A stretch of 63,072 nt of DNA, the filler included, from Reclinomonas americana ATCC 50394 (lineage: Eukaryota): assembly GCA_048213135.1 (NCBI GenBank). It is 30 parts of 30 records of this genome, joined end to end, with 100 filler letters (N's around TTAATTAATTAA, not from the genome) between each part and the next. Parts side by side here need not be neighbours in the genome. Positions count along the whole stretch, not along the records: positions 20,186 to 22,306 come from AFZH01025024.1; 29 more parts are not named here. One strand, given 5' to 3'. Made by a program: the position numbers and the translations under genes. The notes beneath the pieces are model-generated. The model worked only from the letters and a program-made list of their open reading frames with translations. It searched no databases and had not been told where the DNA came from. This document shows positions 1 through 56,683 of the stretch, one piece after another. Every line of letters starts with the position of its first letter. Within the stretch, counting starts at the first letter, position 1.

Positions 1-2101
1 AAACGAGTCCGTCACACGACCACCGTACATGACCTCACCCACCAGATACCGCAAACTGTCCCACGGCACAGGATCGCCGTACATGTCGGCCTTGTTCAAG
101 TACCTGAGACAGACACGCGCAACGGTCAGTCGACGAATCACTCCTCTTCATCACATCAGTGCACGTCGTGAAGAACGCACATCTTGATCAGACGACGCGA
201 GATCTTGAAATCCGACTCGTTGTAGTCGTACGCCACTGCGAGTAGACAATGGCAGGTGAGAACAAGGACAGTGGAGAGGCGAACAAAGCGATCACACGGC
301 TCACGCACCATTCCATCCGATCTTGCCATACTTGCGGCGCTCTTGCACCACCGCATGGAAGAACGTCAGCACGTAAATCAACGGCGCGTACAGCTTGTGC
401 GTGCACGACTGCAGCTCCTCGTCGTCGATCTTGGCAAAGGTGTTGCGCATGTTCAGGCGCAAGTTGTTCGGCGGCTCCTGCACGACCTTGAGCGACCGCT
501 GCAGAATGCCCAGTGGGAAGTTGGGCGTGGCCTCGGTGGTGCACCACAGACGGAAGTCCTGATGCATCTTGCCTGTCGCCTTCTTCTTGTCGTTCTCCTC
601 GAGCAGCTTCTCCAGCTCGCGCAACCACTTGACCAGCAAGTGGCAGTTCTCCAGAATGACCCACTGACCCTTGATCACAGCCTGCTCCACGGTCTCCTTG
701 GCCACTGGCCCTTGACCCTGGCCGAGCGACACACGCTTGAGGCGATTCAGCATGTCGCGCTTGATGGCCAGATCCGTGATATCACGCGCCGGATCGGCAC
801 CAGGCGAGATGACGCACACAATGGGGGCCGTCGGCGTCGACAGCTCGTGCACATCGAAAAAGTTGATGGCCGGCGGCTGCACGTACTTTGGTCCCATAAC
901 CTCCATGATGAACTGGCGCACGGCCAGATTGACACGATCGACACGGAAGCAGCGCAGCAGGCACATGCGCTGGAACGTCGTCAAGCGCTCCGAGTACCCC
1001 TGTGAGAAACAAGGCAGGTGAGCTACAGCGATGAAGAACATGGAAACCCAACGCTGCACATACCATGGGGAACGAAACACCTTCGGGGTTCTCCAAATCA
1101 AACCATGACTTCCACTGCGGTTCGTTTTGCGTCACCTGATCAGCCAAGTGCTCGCACACCGGCACCACCTGCGTCCCCCCCAAGAAAAAGCAGCGTGTGA
1201 ATCTCTTGCCGACAAATTGCGGTCTCGAGGAACAACAACAACCACGCACCGCCTGCAGTTGAATCAGATCCTCCCAGCCTTGGTTTGGAATCCACTCCGC
1301 CGGCTTCTTGCGCTCACTCTTCGTCAGTGCCAAGTTGCCCTTCAGGAAGAAGTCGAGCTCACGACGATTCAGGTTGCCAGCACCCTCGAGAATGCTGTTG
1401 CCATCAACACCAGGAGAGATCAGTACACAAGCTATATCAATGAAGACGAAACGCCCACTCACCGCAGCGCAAGCTGGAAGGCAAACATGTCCTTGTGCTG
1501 TGTGGTTGCGAAAACAAACAAGGCGATGAGACAACTCCTCAGTTACTCGTAAAGACTTCATCGTCGTCGCACCTTCTCAAAGATACCCATGCAAATGTAG
1601 TCGTAGGCCAGCGACGTCAGCAGCGTGATGATGTTGTCGAGCTTGGTGTCCACACTCAAACTGCAAACGAGGTCAGCACCCAAAAGGAGCAGAGCGCTCA
1701 GGTACGTGCCGCGAACTCACCTTGGCTCACGCTTGGAGAGGGCCATCTTGAACACATCAGACAGGTACGACGACAGCGAGTACTCGTACATCGAGTTGAT
1801 TTGCGACAGCGAGGCCATCACGAAGAAGATGATCATGCCGCGACGAGCCGCCGGTCGGTAGGCATCGCACGCTTTCTGTGTGGGAGAAAGGGCAAATGAG
1901 CGTTGTTACCACTGCAAAATCAAGAGCGGCACTGCAGTCCACAAACCTCGATCTTGTCTCGTGTCACCTCGGCGGCGGCCAGCTGCTGCGCAATGTCACC
2001 AGCCTGCCGCTTCGTGTCCTCCAGCGTCGAAATCAGCTCGTCGTTATCGAGAATGTTGCCCGTCGACGTGCTCAGCAAGTGGAGCAAGGTGTCCTCGAGC
2101 C
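1..2101 (-). CDS. DNAH10: Axonemal dynein heavy chain (DNAH10 / inner-arm I1-alpha-like), multi-exon internal fragment covering the AAA5-AAA6 region
   Basis: Spliced via short GT-AG introns: GNILDNDELISTLE, YRPAARRG, ELDFFLKGN..SERKKP..WIPNQGWED, SPGADP, SLGQGQG, GQWVILENCHL, FRLWCTTE, ERRKYGKIGWN, YDYNESDF, LVGEVMYGGRVTD. Confidence 0.92.
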
Positions 2102-2161
2102 TGCACACACACACACGCGCACGCGGTGAGTTTCATGTTACTCTCTCTCCAGTTAGAGTAC

Positions 2162-2261
2162 NNNNNNNNNNNNNNNNNNNNNNNNNNNNNNNNNNNNNNN
2201 NNNNNTTAATTAATTAANNNNNNNNNNNNNNNNNNNNNNNNNNNNNNNNNNNNNNNNNNNN
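2162..2261. other. Artificial contig linker (first of 29; the others start at 4417, 6670, 8923, 11160, 13397, 15630, 17861, 20086, 22307, 24524, 26741, 28946, 30097, 31248, 33449, 35649, 37835, 40020, 41392, 43575, 45748, 47920, 50088, 52255, 54420, 56584, 58748, 60911)
   Basis: Identical 100-bp N44-TTAATTAATTAA-N44 blocks with six-frame stops; unrelated organisms flank them. Confidence 0.99.
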
Positions 2262-4352
2262 TATCAAAACCGAGAGAAATAAGACGAGACAGACGGAAAC
2301 GAGCAAAACGAGGATGGGAAGGACGAAGAGACGAGCAAAGAAAAGGGTGGGTCGGGAGGGCCTCTCCTACACGACGAGCAAAACGAGGATGAGTCGGATG
2401 AACCGACTAGAGAAATGGACTCATCCTCGCAAAAATCATGTTGCTAACGCAAAATGAAACAATCACAAAATGCACGACTTTGCGGAGACCGTACCTTCAC
2501 AACCACTCGTGTGCAAAATAACGAGTTTATTGTTCCACTAAGGTACCTCTGGGGACAGTTGGCTCGGACAGTCTTGCTCGCGTCGATAGCAAATGAAGCC
2601 GCTAGTTGACCGGCTTGCGAGGGCTCCTGGCGCGTGGTTTCATGGTCTTATAAAGCACGGCGATCTGTATTCAGTAGAATGGCTATCTAACTACAGGTAT
2701 GCAAAGTTGCAGCGCGGATGGGTGCAATCCGGCTGAACGGCGGCGATCGGTCGGAGGGCTCCACGTTCGCAAGTTTCTGGACTGCAGAAATGGCGGGAGG
2801 GTGAGACAAGTGAGCTGCAGCGCGCTTGTGCCAGAGCAGTGACCAGTGGATGCACCAGAGCAGGCGCAGAGGTGGAGAGCGTGGGAGACGAGCCTGGTTC
2901 ACAGTGTTGAAGTGTGCAGGACTTGTGGAATCTTAGTGATGCGTGAAGTGACGGCGAATGTCACGCACGCGGTGAGGTGCGGCAAAGATGCGATCTCGCA
3001 CAGCAGGCTGTATGCACCACGACTGTGTGCTGCACTCATTGCTTGGAGTGTGCCGGCCACAGCACGCGCAGAGTGGGTCAGACATGACAAATCTGGTTTC
3101 CGAAAGATGCGCAGCTCGAGCTCAATGCGAACAATCAGTGATGCGTTGGTAGAGGCGAAGCAGCACTTGCTGTGCGATGAAGCACTGCTGCTGCAGACGT
3201 CGACACAGTGGAGGTTGCAGAGCCTGCAGCACAGCGTCGCGTGCGGTCACAGAGTACGAGCTCTGAGAGTGCAGAACGTCAAGATTCGGTTTCCGGCCAC
3301 ACATTGGAGGAGGTCGGGAATCTCTTGAACTGTGGCGACTGGTGCAGACGCGGATAATGTTGCGCGATGCGCCCACCTTACCAGGGCAGCGACATTTGAC
3401 ACGCACAAGCCAATGCCTCCCATGGCAGTGCAACGCATGTGGGTGACGATCGGTGATACTGGATCTGAATCCGAACGCGTTGATGCGCTCAAAAAAACAA
3501 GCATGTGAGTTCAGGCACGCAAGCGCACGCCATCACGGAGGACCTACAGCAGTGTGTGTCGCAGCTGGTGCGGAAAGAGAGGAGCGAGCGCGAGGTGCAT
3601 GGCCAAGGGCCGTCCATTACAGAAACCGAGCAAGTTGTCCGATGCGTGTGTCTGATGCGTGCACGAGTCGGGATGCAAGCGCTGACTGCACCTGTTGTGC
3701 CAAGTTGCCGGGCACTCCATGGATGGTGTCCAAGTGCGTGCACAGTCTTGCAGACTTCATGGAAACAGGCATCGTGCACGGAACCGAAGAGAGACGCGCG
3801 CCGGCGCCGTCGCACAGAAATTGTGTGGTGATGCTGAAGTCAACGGCGCAGCACAGACGTGTGCGAGAAAGACGTGGCGCCTGTAGCAAGTGTCCATATG
3901 CATATATAGACACACGGGTGCGCTGCAAAAGAGAGCTCGAGTGCGGCATGTCATGATGTCAGTGTGCAAAGAACGACTTGGGGAGTGAATCATGACTCGC
4001 CCACTCACCCAGCCAGAAAGAAACGACGGCGCGCGTGAATCGCCGAGAATCGCTGCCTGCGCTTCGACACTCGACGAGAGCGAAACCGCATCGCACAAAG
4101 CAAGACAACTCAGGCACGGTGGTGTTGATTGCATTGTGCTGTTGCAGACGGAAGCCACTGCAGGGCCTGCTGAAACGGATGCGAGCTGCTGGTACTCCCA
4201 AGAGCTCCTCTGTAGATACTCACAATGGTGCCCACGGCCCTCAACAGTTCTTTTCTGAGAGATCGCGACTGTGGCAAGCATCACGATCGATCCAGATCGG
4301 GCGCAGATTCATGCCGCATACAAATAATGCACGATGGGTGCCAGCGCAAGTT

Positions 4353-6769: not shown

Positions 6770-8922
6770 AACTGCAGCAGTCGACGATGCGTCCATCGGC
6801 TGCAGGAGTTGTATATATGGCGATCGACACAGTGTGGGCGACGCAACGTCGACAGTCACATGGACAAGGAAATGACAACACACCGAGTGGTCGTGCCCGG
6901 TAGTAGAAGCAACAGGGTGCTGGTGCTGGACGCCTCTGCCTTTTCCTCTTGTTCCTCTCCGAGTTCGTCGAGCAGGTGCAGGTGCAGGTGCATCGTGCAG
7001 ACGCTGCGAGTCATCGACATCCGCCGGCGCCGGCTGTGGCGCATCACTGGCAGCAGCGGTGCTCGCCTTCTTTGCCACAGCAATGCAGCGTGAGTGTTTT
7101 CCATGAATGATGTGCCCAGCAGCCGCTGCGACATACCTTCTCGGCTTTCGGCACTGCGACTGACTTGGCACGCTTCTTGCGAGTCGGAGTCTTTTCATCG
7201 GGGATCTTGATGGCAATTCCCCCATGGGCACCAGCAGCTGCGCCACTCTGCGACGCAGAACGTTCACATGCCGCGCGTCGCACTCGCTGCAGCATATCAT
7301 GGTCTCTCCGATCTTTTGATGCCGCCGAATCGTGCCCTTGGTGCCTGTTTGTTTTGTGCGCGTCACGTGAGTGAATTCGAGATTGCACGCACTGCAGCAC
7401 TGCGCACGCGCGCGCGGTGCATCTGCAGGAGCGATGGCTCACCTGCCATTGTCGGAGAATGCACGCATAGCGGGGACACTACCCGTCTCCGCCTCAGCAG
7501 CGCGCGCGACCGCTGATGCCAATGGAGGCGGAGTTTGCCGTTCACCGTCCAGCAAGGCGTACAGGTTCGAAATCTCGCCATTCTTGTGCCGCCGCATAGC
7601 CTCGAATTTCAGCGTGCAGCCATCCTTTGGTTGAACTTCGACTGCTGTTGGCGGCGCACCACGCGCACCACGCACGCAGTGCTCCACAGAATGTTGACTG
7701 CAACACAAGAGTTGTGTGAGAACGAGAAATTGCCGTACGTGTGGCCCACCCACATGCACAGATTCAGCGCAACACGTACCTGCACTTGCCACCCGTGCGT
7801 GAGAGCTTGTTTTTCGTCCTGAGTCGCTGCACACGCACACGTTGCCACTTCACAGTTGGCAGGTTGTGTCGTCTACGTAATTGCAGCCATGCATGATTAA
7901 TTAATTGCAAGTCAGTTTTAGTGCAGAACAAAAGAAAGCTGCGCTCACCTGGCGTGCGAGTATGGAGTCAGATTGTCGATAACGGCAGACACGCCAGCAG
8001 CCAGGCGTTTCGCTGCGTCCTGCAGCTTTTCCGGCTTCACAGGCTGACTCCAAGGCGGCAGGGGGGGCACCTCCTCCTGATCCTCCTTCTTCTTCGATTT
8101 CTCCGTGCGCCTCATCTCGGCCAGCGTCTCGCGCATCATGAAGTCGTGCATCAGCACCACAGCAACGAGGCGCGCTGGTGATGATGCCTTCTGCGCGAGC
8201 TTCAACAGCTGCTCGACGCATTTAGCATCGTCGTCATTGTCGATTTGCATGGCGAACTCATGTTTCTTGCTGCAGCTGCCGGTCGCGAATTCCTCGAACG
8301 CGCCGTGCAACGTCGTCAAGTAGTACAAGATGCCTTCCAGATCGTGCTCTGGCTCGTCGGTGTTGCTGCAGAACAAAAGTAAAGTGATGAGCAAGAAAGA
8401 ATTTTCAACATTGCATGTAGAACACCGCGGCGAAACCTGGCTTCAGCGAGGAAGTAGCACGTGACGAGAGACAGCTCGACGAGTTGCTTCGTCCGCGCTG
8501 GCGTCATCTCACGATTGCCCGTGGATCTCTCGTGCGAGAGGGCGAGGCTGGATCCAAAGAGCGGAAGAAAGAGGCTCAGTGGATTGCCCTGTGCCGCCGA
8601 CGCCCCGCGGGGCCCGAATGAATGCAGCCAGTGCACGTGATCATCAGTGGCGCGAGCTGCACTGGCAGAGCTCGAGGCGCCGAGCTCGAGCATAGCCTGA
8701 CGGCGCTCATCCAGTTCTGCGGAGAGGAAGAGAGCGAGTGGTAGGTGTGAGTCACAACTGTTTACAAAGCACTTTACACGTGACACAAGAAGTGGGTGCA
8801 GAACATCATGCACGCGCGTGCACGTATTTGTGCGTGTGCGTGCGTGTACACAACTGTCGACTATGTGCTCGATGCGATTGTTGTAAAAAGCAACTCGTTG
8901 CTCCAACCCGGCGTAGACATCA
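6770..8922 (-). CDS. Multi-exon hypothetical eukaryotic protein (fragment)
   Basis: Coding-like exons (about 7949-8367, 8420-8715) bounded by GT/AG; no family recognised. Confidence 0.4.
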
Positions 8923-9567: not shown

Positions 9568-11159
9568 TCAGAACTGATACTTGAGCGTCGCCTTCACGGT
9601 GCGGCCGGGCTCGCTGTAGTAGTCACGCGGCTGCGGACGGGCCAGCGGCACATTGGCGGCGTCCCAGTACTTGCGGTCGAAGATGTTGTAGACGCCGATC
9701 TGCAATTCGAGGTCGGCGATCTCCGGCATCGGGCGCCACCAGGCCGAGGCGTTGAAGATCGCATAGCCCGGCGCCTTGAAGCCGGTGCCTGCCTGGACCG
9801 TCGAGACATCGTCGCGCTTGCCGGCCATCTTGGCCGAGACCTCGGCGCCCCAGCGGTCCGTGCCATAGGCGACGGCGACGATACCCTGCATCGGCGGGAT
9901 CGAGTTGAGGAAGATGTCGTCGGTCTTATTGCGGCCGCGGGTATAGGCGAAGGAGCCGCGCACCAGCCAGTTCGGCGCGAAGGCGTATTGCCCGTTGATC
10001 TCGACGCCCTGGATCTCGGCGCGCGGGATGTTGCGCAGGCTGACGATGCCGCCCTGCGGATAGAGGCCGCCGACACCCGGAGCCTGGAGCTGGTACTGCT
10101 CGATATAATTGCGATAGCTGGTGTGGAAATAGGTGATCGAGCCGCCGAGCTGCTTGTCGCCGAAGCGCAGGCCGACATCGACGCCGTTGCCCTTCTCCGG
10201 ACGCAGCACCGGGTTGCCGGCGCGCAGATAGGTGCTCGGCCCGCCGAAGCGGCCATAGAGTTCGTCCGCCGTCGGGGCCCGGAAGCTCTTGGCCCATTGC
10301 GCGAAGAGCGTGAGGTCCTTCACCAAGGGCGCGTTCTTCAGGATGTCGTATTCCAGCCTGACGCGTGGCGACCAGGCCGAGTCGCTCGACGACGGCGGCA
10401 GCCCGACCGGGCGCGAGCCGCTGGCCGAATAGGCCGGCGTCGCCTGCGGCTTCTCCTCATACCAGTCGAAGCGCACGCCGGGCGTGACGCGCAGGCGATT
10501 GTCGAGCAGGCCGATCTCGTCCTGGACATAGACGCCGACGAGCCGCCCGTCGATGTCGGGCTGGTCCGACTGGTTGGTGAAGAGGTTGTTGCAGGTGGCG
10601 AACGCCCCCGTATAGGAGCCGCTGGCCGGCCGCGCCGGGCAGTTGTCGATGCCCGAGGAATACTGCTTCAGCGACGACATGCGCAGCTCGGTGCCGGCCA
10701 GGATGCGATGCGAGAGCGGGCCGGTCTGCAGGTTCTTGATCACATGGCCGTTGAAACCGTAGGCGGTCTCCTCGTTCTCGTTGTCGCGGCCATAGGGTCC
10801 GATGATGCTGGTGTAGCGCCAGGCGCTGACCAGGTCGTTGCGCTTCAGCCGCTGCCAGTAAAGATTGGCATGCGCCTCGTCGACGAGGAGGCCGCCGGGC
10901 TGCTTGTAGTCATAGGTGAGCGAGACGCGGTTGCGCTCGACATCCTCGCCGGTCTGATAGGCGCCCGGACGGAAATTGCCGGTCAGCGAGACCGTGCTGG
11001 TCCGCGTCTGGACCCGGTCGGCACGCTTGAAGAACTCGCCGGTCAGGCCGAAGCGATGGGCTTCGCCGACCTGCTGGTAGATCTTGCCGAGGAAGCTGTA
11101 CTGGTTGAAGTCGGCCGGGTTGGGCGCGGTGCGGTCGACGCCGATCGTCTTGACGTTGC
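9568..11159 (-). CDS. TonB-dependent heme/hemoglobin/transferrin/lactoferrin-family receptor (5' truncated), alphaproteobacterial-like
   Basis: TPGVRFDWY, FRAP (SFRAPTADELY) and NPNL-like (NPVLRPE) motifs, NIFDRKYW, PGRT, C-terminal Phe; no introns; high GC3. Confidence 0.93.
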
Positions 11160-15729: not shown

Positions 15730-16116
15730 CTGCTTCTTCAGCAGGCCGCGCGGGGCGTGCGGTACGTCCTCGTGACTGTGATGGTCGAGCACGTCGGCGA
15801 TGACCAGCGCCGTGCTGGGCAGCCAGGCGATGCGCCTGAGCGTCGCCATGTCCGGCTTCAGGACGAAGTCGCCATAGCCCTTCGACCAGTTGGCGGCCGC
15901 GTAGCCGGGGACCGGCTCCATGTCGATGTCGTTTGCCAGCAAATAATTGCAGGCATGGGTCTCGTCATGCGCGGTTGCGACGAAATGCTCGGCATGGAAG
16001 CGCTTGCCGATCAGTTGCCCGGCCATGTCGACCATAGCGACGATCACGGTGTCGATCTCCCCGGCTGCCACCGCAGCCTTCAGGGCCTCGAAGGAAAACG
16101 CAGCAGGCATCGGCAT
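15730..16116 (-). CDS. Glutamine synthetase family protein (gamma-glutamyl ligase-like), N-terminus (3' truncated), bacterial
   Basis: IDTVIVAMVDMAGQLIGKRF, GYGDFVLKPDMATLRRIAW, PHAPRGLLKKQ. Confidence 0.9.
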
Positions 16117-16633
16117 CCCTGAAGGCTGGAGCAGCGGAAGCGCAATCGTCGAACGCACAAGAGAAGCCTAGTTGGGGCTGTGCTTGCAACTGTCCCCCAG
16201 GGTGTTCGCAGCGGTGCTGAGCAGATTTTTGGCTGGCTATCGGATTCCGACCGATGCGGGATGGAGGCAAGGCCGCCCTTGAGCCGCGCAAAGCGGAGCG
16301 GCATAGGCCATCGCAAGGCTCCGGCACTCTACGATCTCTCCGTCACTCTTGGATCGATGCGGGAGCCGCGCAGCTAATGCCGCTTGTCCGAAATGACAGG
16401 GGAAGGAGGGATCACGACCTATCCCCAGCCGGCGCGAGAGATTGCCGGCGCCCGCTGCGTCCGAGCGATTGGAGTGACGTGCCTCGAGCGCCAATGGCGA
16501 CGGGGGCACGGGTTGGGTAAGTGAAGTGGTGGCGGCCTCAGTTGCGGTTCGGGCTGTGGGGCCGCGCAGCAGCAAAAGCTGGGGAGAACTTGGCCGGCGG
16601 AGGGCGCCGCGCCCTCCGCCTTGCCTTGACTGG

Positions 16634-17110: not shown

Positions 17111-17163
17111 GGTTGTCCCTCCTTTCGAAGCTGCAAGTCGAGCAGGCGCATGGGGCGATAATT

Positions 17164-17199
17164 TGATCGGGCCCGCGCATCCCTGCGCGGGCCCGATCA
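17164..17199. terminator. Perfect 16-bp inverted repeat downstream of the TAXI gene (terminator- or REP-like hairpin)
   Basis: TGATCGGGCCCGCGCA-TCCC-TGCGCGGGCCCGATCA. Confidence 0.6.
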
Positions 17200-17245
17200 T
17201 GGGGCGCCATGAGACGGCGCGAAAGCTGCCGGCGGCGATCCCGGC

Positions 17246-17960: not shown

Positions 17961-18631
17961 GCGAGGATCGGGTCGATGACGTGCTCGCGCACCTGCGCCT
18001 TCAGCTCGTCCTGCGAGATGTCGGGGTGGTGCTGCGTGGAGAGCACGACCGCGTCGACGGTCTTGGGCGTGAATCCGTCGTAGCCGAGGGTGACCTGCGT
18101 CTTGCCGTCGGGGCGGAGGAACGGCAGCAGACCGCTGCGACGCACCTCGGTGAGGCGCTCGGCGATGCGGTGCGCCGTCCAGGCGGCCATCGGCATGAGC
18201 TGCGGCGTCTCGTTGGTCGCGAAGCCGAACATGATGCCCTGATCGCCGGCGCCGAGCGCGTCGAGCGGATCGACGGACGAGCCGTCGCGGTGCTCCTGCG
18301 CATTGTCGACGCCGTGCGCGATGTCGGTGGACTGCTCACCGACCGAGATGCTGACACCGCAGGAGTCGCCGTCGAAGCCGGTCTCGCTCGACGTGTAGCC
18401 GATGCCGTTCACGACCTGGCGGACGATCGTCGGGATGTCGACGTACGCCTCGGTGCGGATCTCCCCCGCCACATGCACGAGGCCGGTGGTGACGAGCGTC
18501 TCCACCGCGACGCGCGAGCCCGGGTCCTTCGCGAGCAGACCGTCGAGGATGCTGTCCGAGATCTGGTCGCAGATCTTGTCCGGGTGCCCTTCGGTGACGG
18601 ACTCGGACGTGAACAGACGCAGCGCGCTCAT
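17961..18631 (-). CDS. metK: S-adenosylmethionine synthetase (3' truncated), actinobacterial
   Basis: [41 protein letters not shown]. Confidence 0.98.
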
Positions 18632-18722
18632 CGGTGCTCCAGAACGGGGACGGACGGTGGGAGGGGTGTTGCACCCATTCTGGACCGCGGCGCCGACAGA
18701 GCGGCGCGCGCGGCCTCGAATA

Positions 18723-18980
18723 TCACTCCGCGTGACGCAGGCGCAGCTTGTCCTCGTTGATCTCGTGCAGTGCGATGGTGAGCGGCTTGTCCTCGACCGA
18801 GGAGTCGACGAGCGGGCCGACGTTGTCGAAGAGGTTGCCCTCGTGCAGGTCGGAGTAGTAGTCGTTGATCTGACGGGCGCGCTTGGCGGCGTAGATCACG
18901 AGCTCGTACTTGGAGTCGACGCGGTCGAGCAGGTTGTCGATGGGGGGATCGATGATGCCCTTGGTGTGGTGTCCGGCCAT
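18723..18980 (-). CDS. rpoZ: RNA polymerase omega subunit
   Basis: [43 protein letters not shown]. Confidence 0.97.
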
Positions 18981-19045
18981 GATGGGACCTCCAGATCAGG
19001 CGACGGGATCGTCGCGAAGACAGTGCAATAGGCGCGACAGAGAAC

Positions 19046-19957
19046 TCAGCGCGCAGAGCCTGAGGACAATTCTACGACCTCGTGGGCGGCAGCGGCGACG
19101 TCCTCGTTCACGATGAGGTGATCGAACTCGTTCTGGGCGGCCAGTTCGACCTTCGCGGTGCGCAGTCGTCTGGCCCGTTCCTCGGCCTCCTCGGTGCCCC
19201 GGCCGACCAGTCGGTGGACCAGTTCGTCCCAGCTCGGCGGAAGCAGGAAGATGAGCGTCGCAGCGGGTTCGGCGCGCCGCACCTGACGTGCGCCCTGCAG
19301 GTCGATCTCGAGCAGAACGGTCTTGCCCGCAGCCAGGGCGGCGTCGATCGGCGCCCGCGGAGTGCCGTAGCGGGAGCGATTGTGCACCACGGCGTATTCG
19401 AGCAGTTCGTCGTCGGCGACCAGGCGATCGAACTCGGCGTCGTCCACGAAGAAGTAGCGCACGCCCTCGATCTCGCCGGGACGCGGAGGGCGCGTCGTCG
19501 CCGACACCGAGAGGTGGATCTCCGGGTTGTGCTCGCGGATGTGGGCCGCGACGGTGCCCTTGCCGACGGCGGTCGGCCCCGCGAGCACGAGCAGTCGGCT
19601 GCGTGCGCCGCGCGGCTCCAGCACAGGGAACCGGGAGTCGAGCCAGGACTCGAGGACGACGCGCTGACGAGCGCCGAGCCCGCCGAGACGCTTGACCGGC
19701 GAGATGTGCAGCTCCCCCAGCACGCGATCGCGCTTGCCCGCACCGATCGCGGGGAGGGCGAGGAGGAAGTCAGTGATCCGCATGGACCCTTCGACCGAGT
19801 CCGCATCCGCGGTGGCGCGGTGCAGCACCGTTTGCGGGGACACGACGCGCATCGTGAGATCGCGCTTCAGCGAGGCCCTGGCCCGTCGACGTTCCACGGC
19901 CCTGCGGGCGGCCGCCGCGCGGTCCACCTCGGGGACGGTCCGACGCACCTCAGACAC
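19046..19957 (-). CDS. gmk: Guanylate kinase with a fused N-terminal actinobacterial integration host factor (mIHF) domain
   Basis: C-part: GPTAVGKGT, SVSATTRPPRPGE, LLEIDLQGARQV. N-part: RRARASLK..LLALPAIG..ELHISPVKRLGGLGARQR (mIHF H2TH-like). Confidence 0.93.
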   Translation of the reverse strand: MSEVRRTVPEVDRAAAARRAVERRRARASLKRDLTMRVVSPQTVLHRATADADSVEGSMRITDFLLALPAIGAGKRDRVLGELHISPVKRLGGLGARQRVVLESWLDSRFPVLEPRGARSRLLVLAGPTAVGKGTVAAHIREHNPEIHLSVSATTRPPRPGEIEGVRYFFVDDAEFDRLVADDELLEYAVVHNRSRYGTPRAPIDAALAAGKTVLLEIDLQGARQVRRAEPAATLIFLLPPSWDELVHRLVGRGTEEAEERARRLRTAKVELAAQNEFDHLIVNEDVAAAAHEVVELSSGSAR

Positions 19958-20085
19958 TGACGACCTCCCGGTATTCGGCGGCGCGGGCGTCGATCGCTGC
20001 GGCGAGTCCGTCCGGACCGGCGGAGAGGATGCTGCGGCTCTCGCTCGCGATCACGGCATCCGACATCCGTCCGAATCGTGGACGC
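19950..20085 (-). CDS. pyrF: Orotidine-5'-phosphate decarboxylase, C-terminus (5' truncated)
   Basis: VIASESRSILSAGP..*; expected position in the actinobacterial pyrF-mihF-gmk-rpoZ operon. Confidence 0.8.
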
Positions 20086-20185: not shown

Positions 20186-21367
20186 CTGCGTACAACAACG
20201 CAGTCTCCTTTGTGCGCAAGTGAGTGCATGAGCATGGTGTGGTGATTGCAAGCGGTGGTGTCTCATTCACTTGTGCATATCAACCACGCAGAGCGGCCAT
20301 TGTCAACGCGGTTCTCATTCTGCCACCATTTTCAACGGAAATGGGGCGCATGATGCAGAAACGGCAGTGGGTCGACTATCGCAACGAGTGGCAGAACAGA
20401 TGCATCGGACGCGACACAGTGCTCAAGATGCAATACTCTGGGTTCGGCCTGGTCAAGAAGTTGGCGGAAGCACTGGTGCGTACGTGTATCAACAGACCGA
20501 GTTGGCTTGATTTCTCACTCTCACTCACTCACTCTCTCTCTCTCTCTCTCGGTGTTTGTCTGTGCGTGTGCACAGGCTGCCAAGTCGAGAGTGCTTTCTC
20601 AACAGGATGCGTCGTTCGTTGAGCTGCTTGTATTGCCCTACTCCGAGGCGGGATCGACTATGCACTGCCCGGGTTGCGGACAAGGGAAGAAGGCGGAGAG
20701 CGCCAAGACGATCGTGTGCAACACTAATGAGTGCCCGCTGAAAGGCAAGACCATGTTCCGTGACGCTCGCGGTGCGTGGAACATTCTGTTGAGTTGCTTG
20801 GAGGTTTCGGAACGACTGCAGTCGCCGTCGCTCGCCAAGCGTCGGCGGCCAAACGAGGACGGTCGCGAGGTGGACGAGGAGGCGACGGAGCCCAAGAAGA
20901 AGAGGAGCAAGACGAGGGAGACCGAGCCGAAGTCGAAGAAGAAGAAGGCGAGAGAAGAAGAAGAAGGAGGAGGTGGAGGAGGAGTGGGAGGAGGAGGGGG
21001 AGAGAATGGAGGTACGTGTGCACGCACTCTTCTCGATGCTCTCGTTTCTCTTTCGTGCACTCTAATATGTGCTTTACAGGTCGTGGAGCCGTCGCCGCCG
21101 CCGCCCGCAGGGACGAGGCACTCGGCCAGACTTGCAGCTCAATTGCAAGCTCGTCGATCGCGAGCTCAACTGCAATCTGCATCGCGACCGGGAACAGACG
21201 TCGAGCACCGAATGCAACCGTGCGTGTCACTGATGTGCCCGCTATTATTGTGCTCAGTATCTATTGAGTTTGTACTCATTTGGTGTTCTCCCTTTGTTCG
21301 CAGCGAGGGTTTGGGTGATCCGTCTGATGTTGTGTCGGCGACAGCTGACGCGCAGGGGGTCCTGTAG
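20186..21367 (+). CDS. Fanzor2-like (eukaryotic TnpB) RNA-guided nuclease, C-terminal half; 5' truncated; introns 20220-20291 and 20476-20575, probably also 21012-21079 and 21220-21303
   Basis: Spliced: AYNNAVSFVRKAAIVNAVLILPPFSTEM..RCIGRDTVLKMQYSGFGLVKKLAEALAAKS..LVLPYSEAGSTMHCPGCG..KTIVCNTNEC..MFRDARGAWNILL, then a K/R-rich NLS-like tail. Confidence 0.85.
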
Positions 21368-21446
21368 ACCCTTAACTCATTTTCCAAGGAGTACGCCCAA
21401 ACTCATGTTGCGTCTCCGCTCAGACGTCCGTATGCATCGTTGTCAG
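21299..21446 (+). ncRNA. Putative Fanzor omegaRNA (scaffold about 21299-21426, candidate guide from 21427)
   Basis: 18-bp outer stem, three inner hairpins and a 7-bp pseudoknot (CGTCTGA 21321-21327 / TCAGACG 21420-21426); overlaps the 3' end of the nuclease ORF. Confidence 0.6.
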
Positions 21447-21797
21447 CTTGCATATGTCTCACCCCCTAGTCATGCGTGTGTGCAGAAACTAACTGTGTGT
21501 GTGAGTATGCGTGTCTCTCTGTGCGTGCTGTGTGTTCTACTTGTCTCTCCCTCCTCCCCTCTTTCGCTGTCTCTCTCCCTGTCTCTCTCCCTCTCTCTCT
21601 CTTGGCAGTTGCGTGAAATTTCCCTTTCCTGGGGTACTACTTATTGTTTCGTTGGGGTGTTGTCGTTGACCGCAAACCGTGTTCTCACCGCGTGCCCCCC
21701 TCGAGCTAGGAAAACCCCACCAAATCATGAATGTTACGCGAGAGCGAATAGAAGTGACTTTTATGATGTGTTGCTCACTTTTATGATGTTACTTAAG

Positions 21798-22260
21798 CGT
21801 GACTTTGTTGAGGAGCGCATCTGGATGCAAGACCGCATTCGTCTGCTTGAGCGGGAGCTGGGCGAGGTGCGGCGACAGGCGGAGAGTCGCGTGCACGAGG
21901 CCGAGTCGCGCGTGTTGCACGAGCAGCAAGTGGCGAGTGAGCGCGTGGCACGTGCACGCGATGAGGTGTTGCAGGAGCAGTTGGGCAAGTCGGTGGCGGT
22001 GCGGCGTGCGGAGGCGGAGCGGAAGCGCGTGGAGGAGAGTGTGAGGGCGGTGTTGGAGGCGCGTGTGAGAGAGTTGGAGGGCAAGTTGGGCGATGAGGAG
22101 CGGGCGGCGAGGTTGCGGCTGGATATGGCGGTGGAGCATGAGCGGCGTGCGTGGGAGCTGTCGTTGAAGCAGTGTAGGGATGAGGGCGCGCAGGCGTTGC
22201 GGGAGGCGGTCGAGGTCGAGGAGAGGAGGCGGGCGTTGGTGGAGGAGCGGCTGCGCGTGG
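21798..22260 (+). CDS. Coiled-coil protein exon (probable host gene downstream of the Fanzor locus)
   Basis: E/R/A-rich heptad sequence after a TTAAG acceptor. Confidence 0.55.
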
Positions 22261-23057
22261 CGCTCTTGAGTCTGGTGTGTGTGTGGCTAGCTGTCTATGT
22301 GTGTTANNNNNNNNNNNNNNNNNNNNNNNNNNNNNNNNNNNNNNNNNNNNTTAATTAATTAANNNNNNNNNNNNNNNNNNNNNNNNNNNNNNNNNNNNNN
22401 NNNNNNGGAGGAGGTGGAGGAGATGCGCGACGAGGTTTGTCTGGTGTGTTTGTGTTCAGCCAACACGCCAAATCCTCCAGATATGGCTGGCGTCGCAGCT
22501 CCCCGAGTCACCGGTGCCATCTGCTCCCGGCAGACAGATGTTTCCACCGCGGAACCAGAACCAGATCCATGCCCGGGCTGTGACAGTGCGCACAGGAAGC
22601 AGCTCGCCATCTTTTTTGTGGTCAATTCGAGCTTGCATTCGTGTGCGGTGTATTGCACGGATCACGGCCGTGAAATACGGGTTTTAAATCACGCCGTCGC
22701 CACGCCAAAAATTTGCTGCGCTGCGATCGTCGTCAGCTGTGAGGCGGTCACGCCCTGCCAGCCTCCGCCTCTTTCTCAACAAGTGTGCGGCTTCCACGCC
22801 GATTCAATGGCACGGTCCAGGGAGGTCGAGTTGCACCTGGTGGCGCATTTTGACTTCGTCCCCGGCAGGACTTGTCAAGGGTTGACCGGACGGGTCGTGT
22901 CGCATTGAGAATTGCCTACCATCCAAACACACGCCACTTTTCTGCGCCTCCGCCGAGCAATCACCACCACCACCACCTTCCCCTCAACCACTACCTTCAC
23001 CACTCCAATCCCCGCCTCCGAGCTCCCCCCACCACACACACACAATCCGAAATAATA

Positions 23058-40119: not shown

Positions 40120-41052
40120 GGCAGCGGTGGTCGCGTCCTTCACGGCGACGTTGATCGCCTTCATGATCGAGAACATCGTGACGCCCGCGACGCTCGGGTC
40201 GGCAACCGCGAGGTCGCTGTCGACACCGATCATCAGCGTGTCCTTGCCGCTGTCGGCGATCGCCGCCGCAGCGCTCTGGTAGACCGGGCCACCGACGGGA
40301 AGGATGACGTCGACACCCTGGTCGAGCACGCCCTGAGCGGTCTGCTTGGCGGTGTCGTTCGCGTCGAAGCCGCCCGTGAAGGAGCCCTCCTGCGTGGCGA
40401 CGTCCCAGCCGAACACCTGGACGGCGGCCGACTTGTCCTCGTTGTACTTGTCGACGCCGAGCGAGAAGCCGTCCATGAACACGGCGACGGACGGGATCTG
40501 CATTCCGCCGAAGGTGCCGACCTTGTTCACGCCGCTCTGCGCGGACCAGCCGGCCGCGGCGTATCCGCCGAGGTAGGCGGCCTGAGCCGTGTCGAAGACG
40601 AGCGGCTTGATGTTCGGAGCATCGGTGGTGCCGTCGAAGTCGGTGTCTGCGTAGTCATCGATGATCGCGTAGTCGATCTCGGGGTTCGCGAGCGCCGACT
40701 CGACCGTCGCGGCGGCCAGCTTGAAGCCGACGGCGACGATCAGCGAGCAGCCCTCGGAGACCGCGGTCTCGAGGTTCGGCGCGTAGTCGTTGTCGTTCGC
40801 CGACTCGAACTCGAGCGGCTTGACGTCGAGCTCCTCCGCGGCGGCGTCCATGCCTTCCTTCGCCGACTGGTTGAACGACTTGTCGTTCCAGCCGCCCGCG
40901 TCGGAGACGAGGCAGGGGAGGAAGTCGGAGTCCGCAGCGCCCTCCGAACCGCCGGCGTCATCGGTCGGGGCCTGGCCGCAGCCGGCAAGTGCGAAGATGA
41001 CGCCCGCGGCGATTGTCGCGCCGAGCAGCTTCTTGGTGGTGGAGATGGTCAA
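40120..41052 (-). CDS. BMP-family ABC transporter substrate-binding lipoprotein (3' truncated), actinobacterial
   Basis: LAGC lipobox; SDAGGWNDKSFNQSA, GADVI-like GVDVILPVGG, IGVDSD; GGAGG RBS. Confidence 0.93.
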
Positions 41053-41200
41053 CTGATGCCTCCCTCAACGAAACCGCGGCCATCGCGGATCGATCAAAGT
41101 TACCTACTGTTTCAACTTTTGTACGCGCTCGCCCCGCACGTGCTGGCGAAAGGTTACAAAGCTGAAACCAACCCAGCCGATGAGCATCCGACGGCGCTCA

Positions 41201-47763: not shown

Positions 47764-47841
47764 TAGGTGCCAGTGTGTGTGTCCCCCCACACCACAAACA
47801 ACTTTTTTAGCCATAAAAAAATTTGTTTGTGGTGTGGGGTT

Positions 47842-47919
<78 letters not shown>

Positions 47920-56110: not shown

Positions 56111-56683
56111 GCAACACACGCACGCACACGCACGCACTCGGCACTCTCTCTCTCTCTTGGCTGTCAATGTCTGGTCGTGTGTACTGTCTTGCTTGCCACA
56201 CGCAGCGCGCAATGAAGAAGAACAACAGAGTGTGATCGCGCTGTGATCGGTCGGCGGTGGTGTGAGTCACAGCGTCGGTCGTGCAATTCGCGCGCGCGCA
56301 AACCGTTGTCGAATGCGAAGTTCTTTTGAGTGGAAACGTGCGCGCGCGTGCGAGTTGTCTTTCGGCTCTTCAATTCCCATGTGCCCCTCCGCTTGCTGCA
56401 TTCACGCAGCTCGTTGTTGGCGATCGCGATGAAAAACGAACGCGCGACGTTGCTGACACCGGCACCTGTGCATGCACGCAGGCGCGCACCTAATCGCACG
56501 TGCCCATTTGCAACTGTGCGCCTTACTGCACTTGCACAGGATGCATGCATGCGCAACGTCGACAACTGGTCCTATCCTGTTCGNNNNNNNNNNNNNNNNN
56601 NNNNNNNNNNNNNNNNNNNNNNNNNNNTTAATTAATTAANNNNNNNNNNNNNNNNNNNNNNNNNNNNNNNNNNNNNNNNNNNN

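Follow-up and report, generated by a model that had tools for sequence, protein, structure and literature searches.

A candidate guide RNA scaffold at the 3' end of a Fanzor-like gene fragment in a Reclinomonas americana assembly

On a short contig (AFZH01025024.1) of the eukaryote Reclinomonas americana ATCC 50394 (assembly GCA_048213135.1), a 114-nucleotide (nt) sequence folds, on one strand only, into a long closing stem that encloses three hairpins, and it lies at the end of an open reading frame (ORF) that carries the motifs of Fanzor-type nucleases of the TnpB superfamily. The contig is one of 30 pieces joined into the 63,072-base stretch of DNA analyzed here (the window), along which all positions are counted. 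We describe the sequence at 21299-21412, possibly extending to 21426, as a candidate scaffold of the guide RNA (omegaRNA or reRNA) of the Fanzor-like nuclease encoded just upstream, an interpretation that we advance tentatively and to which we give somewhat less than an even chance.

Under this interpretation, the RNA would have the sense orientation and arise within, or by processing of, the 3' end of the nuclease transcript, the nuclease would bind the multi-stem scaffold, and the 15-20 nt after the scaffold, drawn from DNA flanking the element, would guide the cleavage of matching targets. A guide RNA and nuclease pair of this kind would come from a Fanzor lineage that sequence searches fail to link to the known ones, would help to map omegaRNA architecture across eukaryotes, especially with respect to the retention or loss of the pseudoknot, and could provide a compact genome-editing scaffold. 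The overlap between the scaffold and a splice acceptor would also raise the question of how guide RNAs are produced from intron-containing Fanzor genes. At present, it amounts to one candidate, of a type already known, on a contig of 2 kb. The sequence shows the fold, its strand, its place at the ORF end and the Fanzor-type motifs, which together with the size lend the interpretation partial support; the existence of the RNA, its end point and its activity are inferred.

A multi-stem fold on the sense strand

The contig spans positions 20186-22306 (2121 nt) and includes no more of the nuclease gene than its 3' part. An earlier note on this DNA, produced by a model that worked without database searches, had folded the site by hand; the components of that fold, together with the pseudoknot and guide that it proposed, are the following.

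21299-21412, + strand: core structure, the candidate omegaRNA scaffold, in which the stem P1 encloses the hairpins H1, H2 and H3
21299-21317 with 21394-21412, + strand: closing stem P1, with 14 Watson-Crick pairs, 4 G-U pairs and 1 A-A mismatch
21331-21352, + strand: hairpin H1, with 6 Watson-Crick and 3 G-U pairs
21355-21373, + strand: hairpin H2, with 5 Watson-Crick and 2 G-U pairs
21375-21392, + strand: hairpin H3 (ACTC/GAGT), with 4 Watson-Crick pairs
21321-21327, + strand: 5' strand of the proposed pseudoknot (CGTCTGA), in a junction strand inside P1
21420-21426, + strand: 3' strand of the proposed pseudoknot (TCAGACG), forming 7 Watson-Crick pairs, and the scaffold end suggested in the earlier note
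21427-21446, + strand: putative guide, TCCGTATGCATCGTTGTCAG

All the pairings described by hand, namely the 18 pairs of P1 (including four G-U pairs) around the A-A mismatch, the hairpins and the CGTCTGA/TCAGACG complement, are present in the sequence. On the + strand, the 114-nt core has a minimum free energy of -53.8 kcal/mol (z score -5.27), a value that none of 200 dinucleotide shuffles equaled, so that the comparison with shuffled controls called for in the earlier note favors the fold. The full 148 nt give z -3.04 on the + strand, with 1 of 200 shuffles as good, and z +0.80 on the - strand, with 160 of 200 as good. The strand specificity of the fold is real: it is confined to the + strand. 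Apart from the Watson-Crick pairs, P1, H1 and H2 contain nine G-U pairs and the one A-A mismatch, and because the non-Watson-Crick pairs are G-U, these helices are valid only on the sense strand, as had been argued. When a sliding 115-nt segment was moved along both strands of the contig, the most negative value was that at 21296 on the + strand (z -3.6). H1 and H2 form with a pair probability of 0.94-0.95 in every sequence context tried, and P1 with a probability of 0.99 in the bare core and 0.69 in the 148 nt.

A Fanzor-like gene fragment upstream

The ORF upstream of the fold is accepted here, on the motifs and profile matches detailed below, as a putative C-terminal fragment of a Fanzor-like protein of the TnpB superfamily. 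Its parts, with the introns predicted from the sequence, are as follows.

20293-20475, + strand: partial exon upstream of the zinc ribbon, open frame, with a GTGCGT donor at 20476
20476-20575, + strand: putative intron of 100 nt (GTGCGT...GCACAG) that holds a CT microsatellite and whose removal joins the frames in phase
20576-21011, + strand: exon with the Fanzor-type hallmarks (motifs and profile matches)
20645-20647, + strand: alternative Glu, within exon 20576-21011
20666-20677, + strand: CPGC knuckle, within the same exon
20762-20764, + strand: RuvC-III Asp in RDARGAWNI, within the same exon
21012-21079, + strand: putative intron of 68 nt (GTACGT...CTAAT...TTTACAG)
21080-21219, + strand: putative low-complexity exon encoding a C-terminal tail, an open frame once spliced
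21220-21303, + strand: putative last intron of 84 nt (GTGCGT...TTCTCCCTTTGTTCGCAG), the final 5 nt of which are the first 5 nt of P1

The exon at 20576-21011 encodes, in this order, EAGSTMHCPGC, 13 residues, the second knuckle CNTNEC, 9 residues and RDARGAWNI, after which come three basic (K/R-rich) runs resembling nuclear localization signals (NLS) and a glycine run. According to PMC10711439, an alternative Glu six residues before CxxC is a hallmark of Fanzors and pro-Fanzor TnpBs, and the Fanzor zinc finger is captured by the expression CxxC-x(12,18)-CxxC, with the RuvC-III Asp 4-8 residues further on. The alternative Glu is present at the required distance (EAGSTMHCPGC, residues 24-34 of the exon translation); the strict zinc-finger expression gives no match, the 13-residue spacing is in range, and a relaxed expression matches residues 24-63.

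In all three profile libraries, the best match is to the C-terminal end of TnpB-family models, weak but convergent: PF07282 (score 20 bits, cut-off 26.3, E 7.8e-4), NCBIfam NF040570 guided_TnpB (score 18.1 bits, cut-off 100, E 1.2e-3, covering positions 341-387 of the 389 in the profile) and phrog_506 'transposase' (E 6.2e-4). All 30 feature hits in the ESM Atlas fall within the PF07282 set, the best of them in a giant-virus cluster (score 0.95, 184 shared features). The upstream exon 20293-20475 on its own matched no family in the profile libraries and gave no usable ESM Atlas hit, and an AlphaFold2 model of the single 86-residue fragment had a mean predicted local distance difference test (pLDDT) score of 46.7, too low for a fold search.

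The fragment thus resembles Fanzor and pro-Fanzor nucleases in its E-x6-CxxC motif, in a zinc ribbon placed between RuvC-II and RuvC-III, in the Asp of RD..GAWNI, in the basic NLS-like runs and in the weak matches to the end of the TnpB profiles, and the Fanzor-type assignment of the earlier note is borne out. Unlike a full Fanzor, it is limited to the final 257-324 codons, a number that varies with the gene model; the contig cuts off the 5' part of the gene at 20186, and with it the N-terminal region in which the RuvC-I Asp of a DPG motif would be expected, and the fragment could belong to either Fanzor1 or Fanzor2. The description of the site as the end of the Fanzor gene holds insofar as the fold is near the 3' end of the ORF, and has to be narrowed to a gene fragment. 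Because putative GT-AG introns interrupt the ORF, a eukaryotic gene is indicated: the frame is restored by removing intron-like GT-AG interruptions, on the assumption that they are spliced, and sister contigs encode a dynein heavy chain and other eukaryotic domains; bacterial contigs are present in the assembly as well.

The two later introns (21012-21079 and 21220-21303) have GT(A/G)CGT donors and polypyrimidine-CAG acceptors, and four gene models follow from their use or from a longer splice.

Both later introns used: stop at 21316-21318, in the 5' arm of P1
Only 21012-21079 used: stop at 21265-21267, 32 nt before P1
Neither later intron used: stop at 21365-21367, in the H2 loop
21219 spliced to 21609: no stop before the contig end, with the structure inside a 389-nt intron

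In three of the four models, the structure lies across the end of the ORF or comes directly behind it, in agreement with the earlier note, which placed the candidate on the nuclease strand at the end of the gene.

Two other folds were seen along this gene. The second strong local fold of the contig, a 70-nt segment at 20211-20280 (+ strand, RNALfold z -5.15), lies just 5' of the first visible nuclease exon and is probably intronic. At 20966-21056 (+ strand), 19 pairs, 8 of them G-U, can form between the GGAGGAGG-rich end of the exon and the beginning of the putative intron, which is CT-rich; this pairing (sliding z -3.3) looks like a by-product of low complexity.

Proposed pseudoknot and scaffold end

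The 7-bp duplex of the proposed pseudoknot has an energy of -9.0 kcal/mol. P1 and the pseudoknot helix can coexist only as a pseudoknot, because they compete with each other in nested folds. We therefore scored the two together by adding the best helix to a constrained nested fold, a crude energy without a loop penalty, with the shuffles treated alike. By this score, 21299-21426 reaches -63.3, compared with -43.4 +/- 3.8 for the shuffles (z -5.3, 0 of 150 as good), and the 148 nt give z -3.9 (again 0 of 150). P1 and the pseudoknot helix are, together, unusually stable.

The earlier note took closure by a pseudoknot to be established for Fanzor omegaRNAs. This premise does not hold in general: in PMC10711439, PMC10432273 and PMC11832414, such closure is described only for TnpB and Fanzor2, and Fanzor1 is described as lacking a pseudoknot. 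A scaffold without a pseudoknot that ends with P1 at 21412 would fit the candidate equally well. The guide might accordingly start at 21413 or at 21427, because the scaffold end fits either 21412 or 21426; both the guide TCCGTATGCATCGTTGTCAG and an element end at 21426 are purely conjectural. That the pseudoknot forms at all seems to us unlikely.

Comparison with known guide RNAs

The guide RNAs of TnpB and Fanzor2 are described as several stems plus a pseudoknot (PMC10711439, PMC11832414, PMC12923547), in which about 5 nt just before the guide pair with the apical loop of stem-loop 1 (SL1; PMC10711439). Those of Fanzor1 are described as a 7-bp SL1 followed by one to three stem-loops, with no pseudoknot (PMC10432273, PMC11423790); the last scaffold nucleotides lie in a double-stranded stem, within a 'three-stem shape' (PMC11423790, PMC10711439). 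The SpuFz1 scaffold measures 75 nt and its guide 14-15 nt, and published Fanzor omegaRNAs overlap or follow the ORF end (PMC10432273). For SpuFz1, the RNA that came down with the purified nuclease was sequenced (PMC10432273), and for ISXfa1, the pseudoknot was probed with disrupting and restoring mutations (PMC10711439).

Like the omegaRNAs of TnpB (ISDra2, ISXfa1) and Fanzor2 (ApmFz2, MmeFz2), the candidate shares its strand with a nuclease ORF and lies at the 3' end of that ORF, has several stem-loops in a scaffold that exceeds 100 nt, and contains a 5'-proximal segment that complements the nucleotides just before the proposed guide (cf. PMC11832414, PMC10711439, PMC12923547). Unlike them, it has no sequence similarity to any Rfam family and is known from sequence alone. 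With the Fanzor1 omegaRNAs (SpuFz1, PpFz1, GtFz1 and the SfAV Fanzor1), it shares a eukaryotic host and a position at or after the ORF end; a stem-ended scaffold, as reported for Fanzor1, would fit an end at 21412, and H2, with 7 bp, matches the reported length of SL1 (H1 has 9 bp). The size of the candidate, 114-128 nt, and its multi-stem shape fit the published descriptions of omegaRNAs and reRNAs.

Contrary evidence and alternative explanations

A number of observations weigh against a guide RNA, and they are given in this section together with the alternatives on which they bear. The first concern architecture and protein motifs. Unlike the pseudoknots described for TnpB and Fanzor2, the candidate one comprises 7 bp and draws its 5' strand from a junction rather than about 5 nt from the apical loop of SL1, so that the candidate fits that topology only loosely, with the right ends and the wrong kind of 5' partner. 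Unlike the serial stem-loops described for Fanzor1, H1 and H2 are enclosed by a closing stem of 19 positions. In the protein, the Cx4C form of the second knuckle and the 9-residue spacing to the Asp fall outside the published regular expression, and all the profile matches of the ORF are below the curated cut-offs.

Secondly, no second copy of the structure was found in the searches made, and hence neither covariation nor a conservation boundary. A blastn comparison of the contig with the other 29 pieces of the window returned microsatellite matches only, none of them to 21299-21446, and a covariance model built from the single sequence and run over the window with filters off scored 161.9 bits on itself and 11.8 bits (E 0.61) on the next match. 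An exact 21-nt word comprising the 5' arm and the pseudoknot strand occurred in none of the metagenome contigs and none of the viral contigs searched. The Rfam 15 covariance models gave nothing that overlaps 21299-21446, even at E <= 10, ARAGORN predicted no tRNA, and a repeat search returned only low-complexity families, with no terminal inverted repeat (TIR) or target-site duplication around the structure. Two weak Rfam matches elsewhere in the contig (mir-483-like at 20976-21054 and snoZ178-like at 20463-20560) were judged to be chance. Among the sequencing runs that hold words of the contig, there was no RNA run.

The nuclease fragment, taken as 86 or 145 residues, was likewise without a relative in protein searches, and no longer protein containing it was found. 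An exhaustive HMMER search of 1.84 billion representative proteins (E <= 1e-3) yielded no credible relative; its lone match, a 1341-amino-acid tandem-repeat protein, was judged spurious. A phmmer search of the PDB at E <= 10 returned only protein A and Nup153 zinc-finger chains, which were set aside. Searches by motif pattern gave 14 matches in viral contigs and 307 in metagenome contigs, with no relative of the fragment in either, and 205 in prokaryote genomes, leading to one locus that is not a TnpB. This locus (positions 2046-3134 in a metagenome-assembled genome of an uncultured Chloracidobacterium) encodes two tandem paralogues, membrane proteins with an N-terminal zinc ribbon (MxCPxCGQQQ...FCSRCG). 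It was rejected as a relative, the MHCPGCGQ knuckle being all that it has in common with the fragment.

Thirdly, the fold overlaps predicted splicing signals. P1 shares its first 5 nt with the polypyrimidine-CAG terminus of a likely intron, and an mRNA spliced there would retain only a shorter stem (21304-21412), with z -2.9 and 2 of 300 shuffles as good. These observations agree with a real RNA structure other than a guide RNA: an element of the last intron, the terminal exon or the 3' untranslated region (UTR), whether of the nuclease gene or of a longer fused one, acting, for example, in splicing, 3'-end formation or stability, or else the decayed relic of an omegaRNA in a long-resident and possibly inactive gene. 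P1 starts exactly on an acceptor-like polypyrimidine-CAG site (21285-21303), a donor-like GTATGC follows at 21430, and the splice from 21219 to 21609 would put the whole structure into a 389-nt intron with the ORFs on either side joined in frame, an outcome expected by chance in one case of three. Microsatellites of host type in the introns of the gene suggest long residence rather than recent mobility. No family in Rfam 15 matches the site, however, and its location beside the end of a TnpB-family ORF is what the omegaRNA model predicts; we regard a non-guide structure as somewhat unlikely.

The ORF that would be joined by this splice is the following.

21699-22304, + strand: coiled-coil-like ORF running off the contig end, open frame, probably a separate host gene

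It has no match to a Pfam family. The splice would use the GTGCGT donor at 21220 together with the CTTGGCAG acceptor, which ends at 21608, joining the nuclease and coiled-coil ORFs in frame and leaving the candidate RNA intronic.

Fourthly, the statistics of the fold and of the pseudoknot leave room for chance: the sequence is G/T-rich and folds well, and the structure was sought only after the nuclease motif had been seen. In an RNALfold run over all the pieces on both strands (2 x 60,172 nt), the structure has z -4.75, and 18 other strand-specific loci in the same 60 kb lie at or below this value, about one such locus per 6.7 kb of strand. Part of the significance of the fold is due to boundaries chosen after the fact, and with boundaries not fitted to P1, z is only -3.0 to -3.6. 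For a 3' tail of 20, 35 or 50 nt, shuffling produces a perfect 7-nt complement to the 76-nt interior in 301, 477 and 634 of 5000 cases, respectively, which places the pseudoknot helix alone at chance level (6-13% of shuffles). In contexts of 250-700 nt, moreover, this helix nests and displaces P1, the probability of which falls to 0.06 in 21250-21500, 0.42 in 21150-21560 and 0.17 in 21000-21700, so that there are two mutually exclusive nested folds; a pair of competing helices is also a product of chance. The proposed pseudoknot is a complement of seven Watson-Crick pairs that improves the total energy, is at chance level on its own, has its 5' strand in a junction and competes with P1.

On the other side, neither the 200 shuffles of the nested fold nor the 150 of the pseudoknot-aware score reached the observed energies, and long non-repetitive helices like P1 are rare. 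When the pieces were scanned for helices with 18 or more pairs, no more than one mismatch and a span of up to 150 nt, 139 hits came up, almost all of them in GT, CT or CTG repeats; limiting it to at most 5 G-U pairs leaves about 5 places in some 120 kb of strand, at the following positions.

8807-8848
16067-16135
21299-21412 (the candidate)
47785-47839
56281-56360

From the RNALfold and helix-scan rates, the chance of finding such a structure in a given stretch of about 400 nt on a given strand is roughly 2-6%, and the structure occurs at the site and on the strand where a guide RNA of the TnpB family is expected. The rarity of the fold is suggestive and, for one sequence, not compelling. We consider a chance fold, like a non-guide structure, somewhat unlikely.

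A feature that acts as DNA, either an inverted repeat or subterminal hairpin that a transposase would recognize at the right end of the element or a small foldback insertion, is very unlikely: TnpB- and Fanzor-bearing transposons do have TIRs or subterminal hairpins, the right TIR of TIR elements lies inside the omegaRNA region according to PMC10432273 and PMC10711439, and the 19-nt arms of P1 are of typical TIR size, but the helices, with their nine G-U pairs, lose much of their strength in DNA and on the opposite strand, P1 is not flanked by a target-site duplication, and the left end of any such element is off the contig, with no TIR partner to compare. Such a feature would also be compatible with an omegaRNA.

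Finally, the most specific version of the guide RNA interpretation posits a very divergent, intron-bearing Fanzor lineage whose guide RNA has a pseudoknot of the TnpB/Fanzor2 style, a closing stem of 19 positions around three hairpins and a scaffold that starts on the 3' splice site of the last intron. With the scaffold on that splice site, the guide RNA would come from the unspliced part, or the intron or 3'-UTR part, of the RNA polymerase II transcript of the nuclease itself, and guide production would be coupled to splicing. We mention this version as a long shot.

Composition of the window and other features

The window consists of 30 short pieces of 1051-2161 nt each (60,172 nt in total), sorted roughly from longest to shortest and separated by spacers of N44, 12 nt and N44. 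Because such a spacer separates every piece from the next, the window is a concatenation of small contigs from one assembly; gene neighborhood across the spacers is meaningless, and the flanking pieces are unlinked. A domain scan that took in 118 of the 143 ORFs of at least 140 amino acids identified eukaryotic pieces, with dynein heavy chain, WD40, TIG, PH and RRM domains, and bacterial ones, with a TonB-dependent receptor at 9571-11157 and Bmp/PnrA at 40120-41064. The piece directly before the contig of the candidate (17961-20085, 69% GC) is also bacterial, with metK, rpoZ and gmk, which encode S-adenosylmethionine synthetase, the RNA polymerase omega subunit and guanylate kinase.

A DNA sequencing run from a pond metagenome contains contigs 99-100% identical to 20186-20428 and 20564-20624 (0.07 share of words), from which it follows that the organism or a close strain lives in a pond; the run has no cover at 21299-21446 and no bearing on expression. 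One of its contigs reaches 156 nt past the 5' end of the contig described here.

Two other hairpins stand out in the window. A perfect 23-bp palindromic hairpin at 47783-47844 (CCCCACACCACAAACAA...TTTTTT) has a lower RNALfold z than any other locus in the window (-10.1 and -9.2, by strand) and adjoins a long GT microsatellite at a contig end. A GC-rich hairpin at 17149-17212, between ORFs of a bacterial contig, has z about -7 on both strands and is probably a bidirectional intrinsic terminator or an element resembling a repetitive extragenic palindrome (REP).

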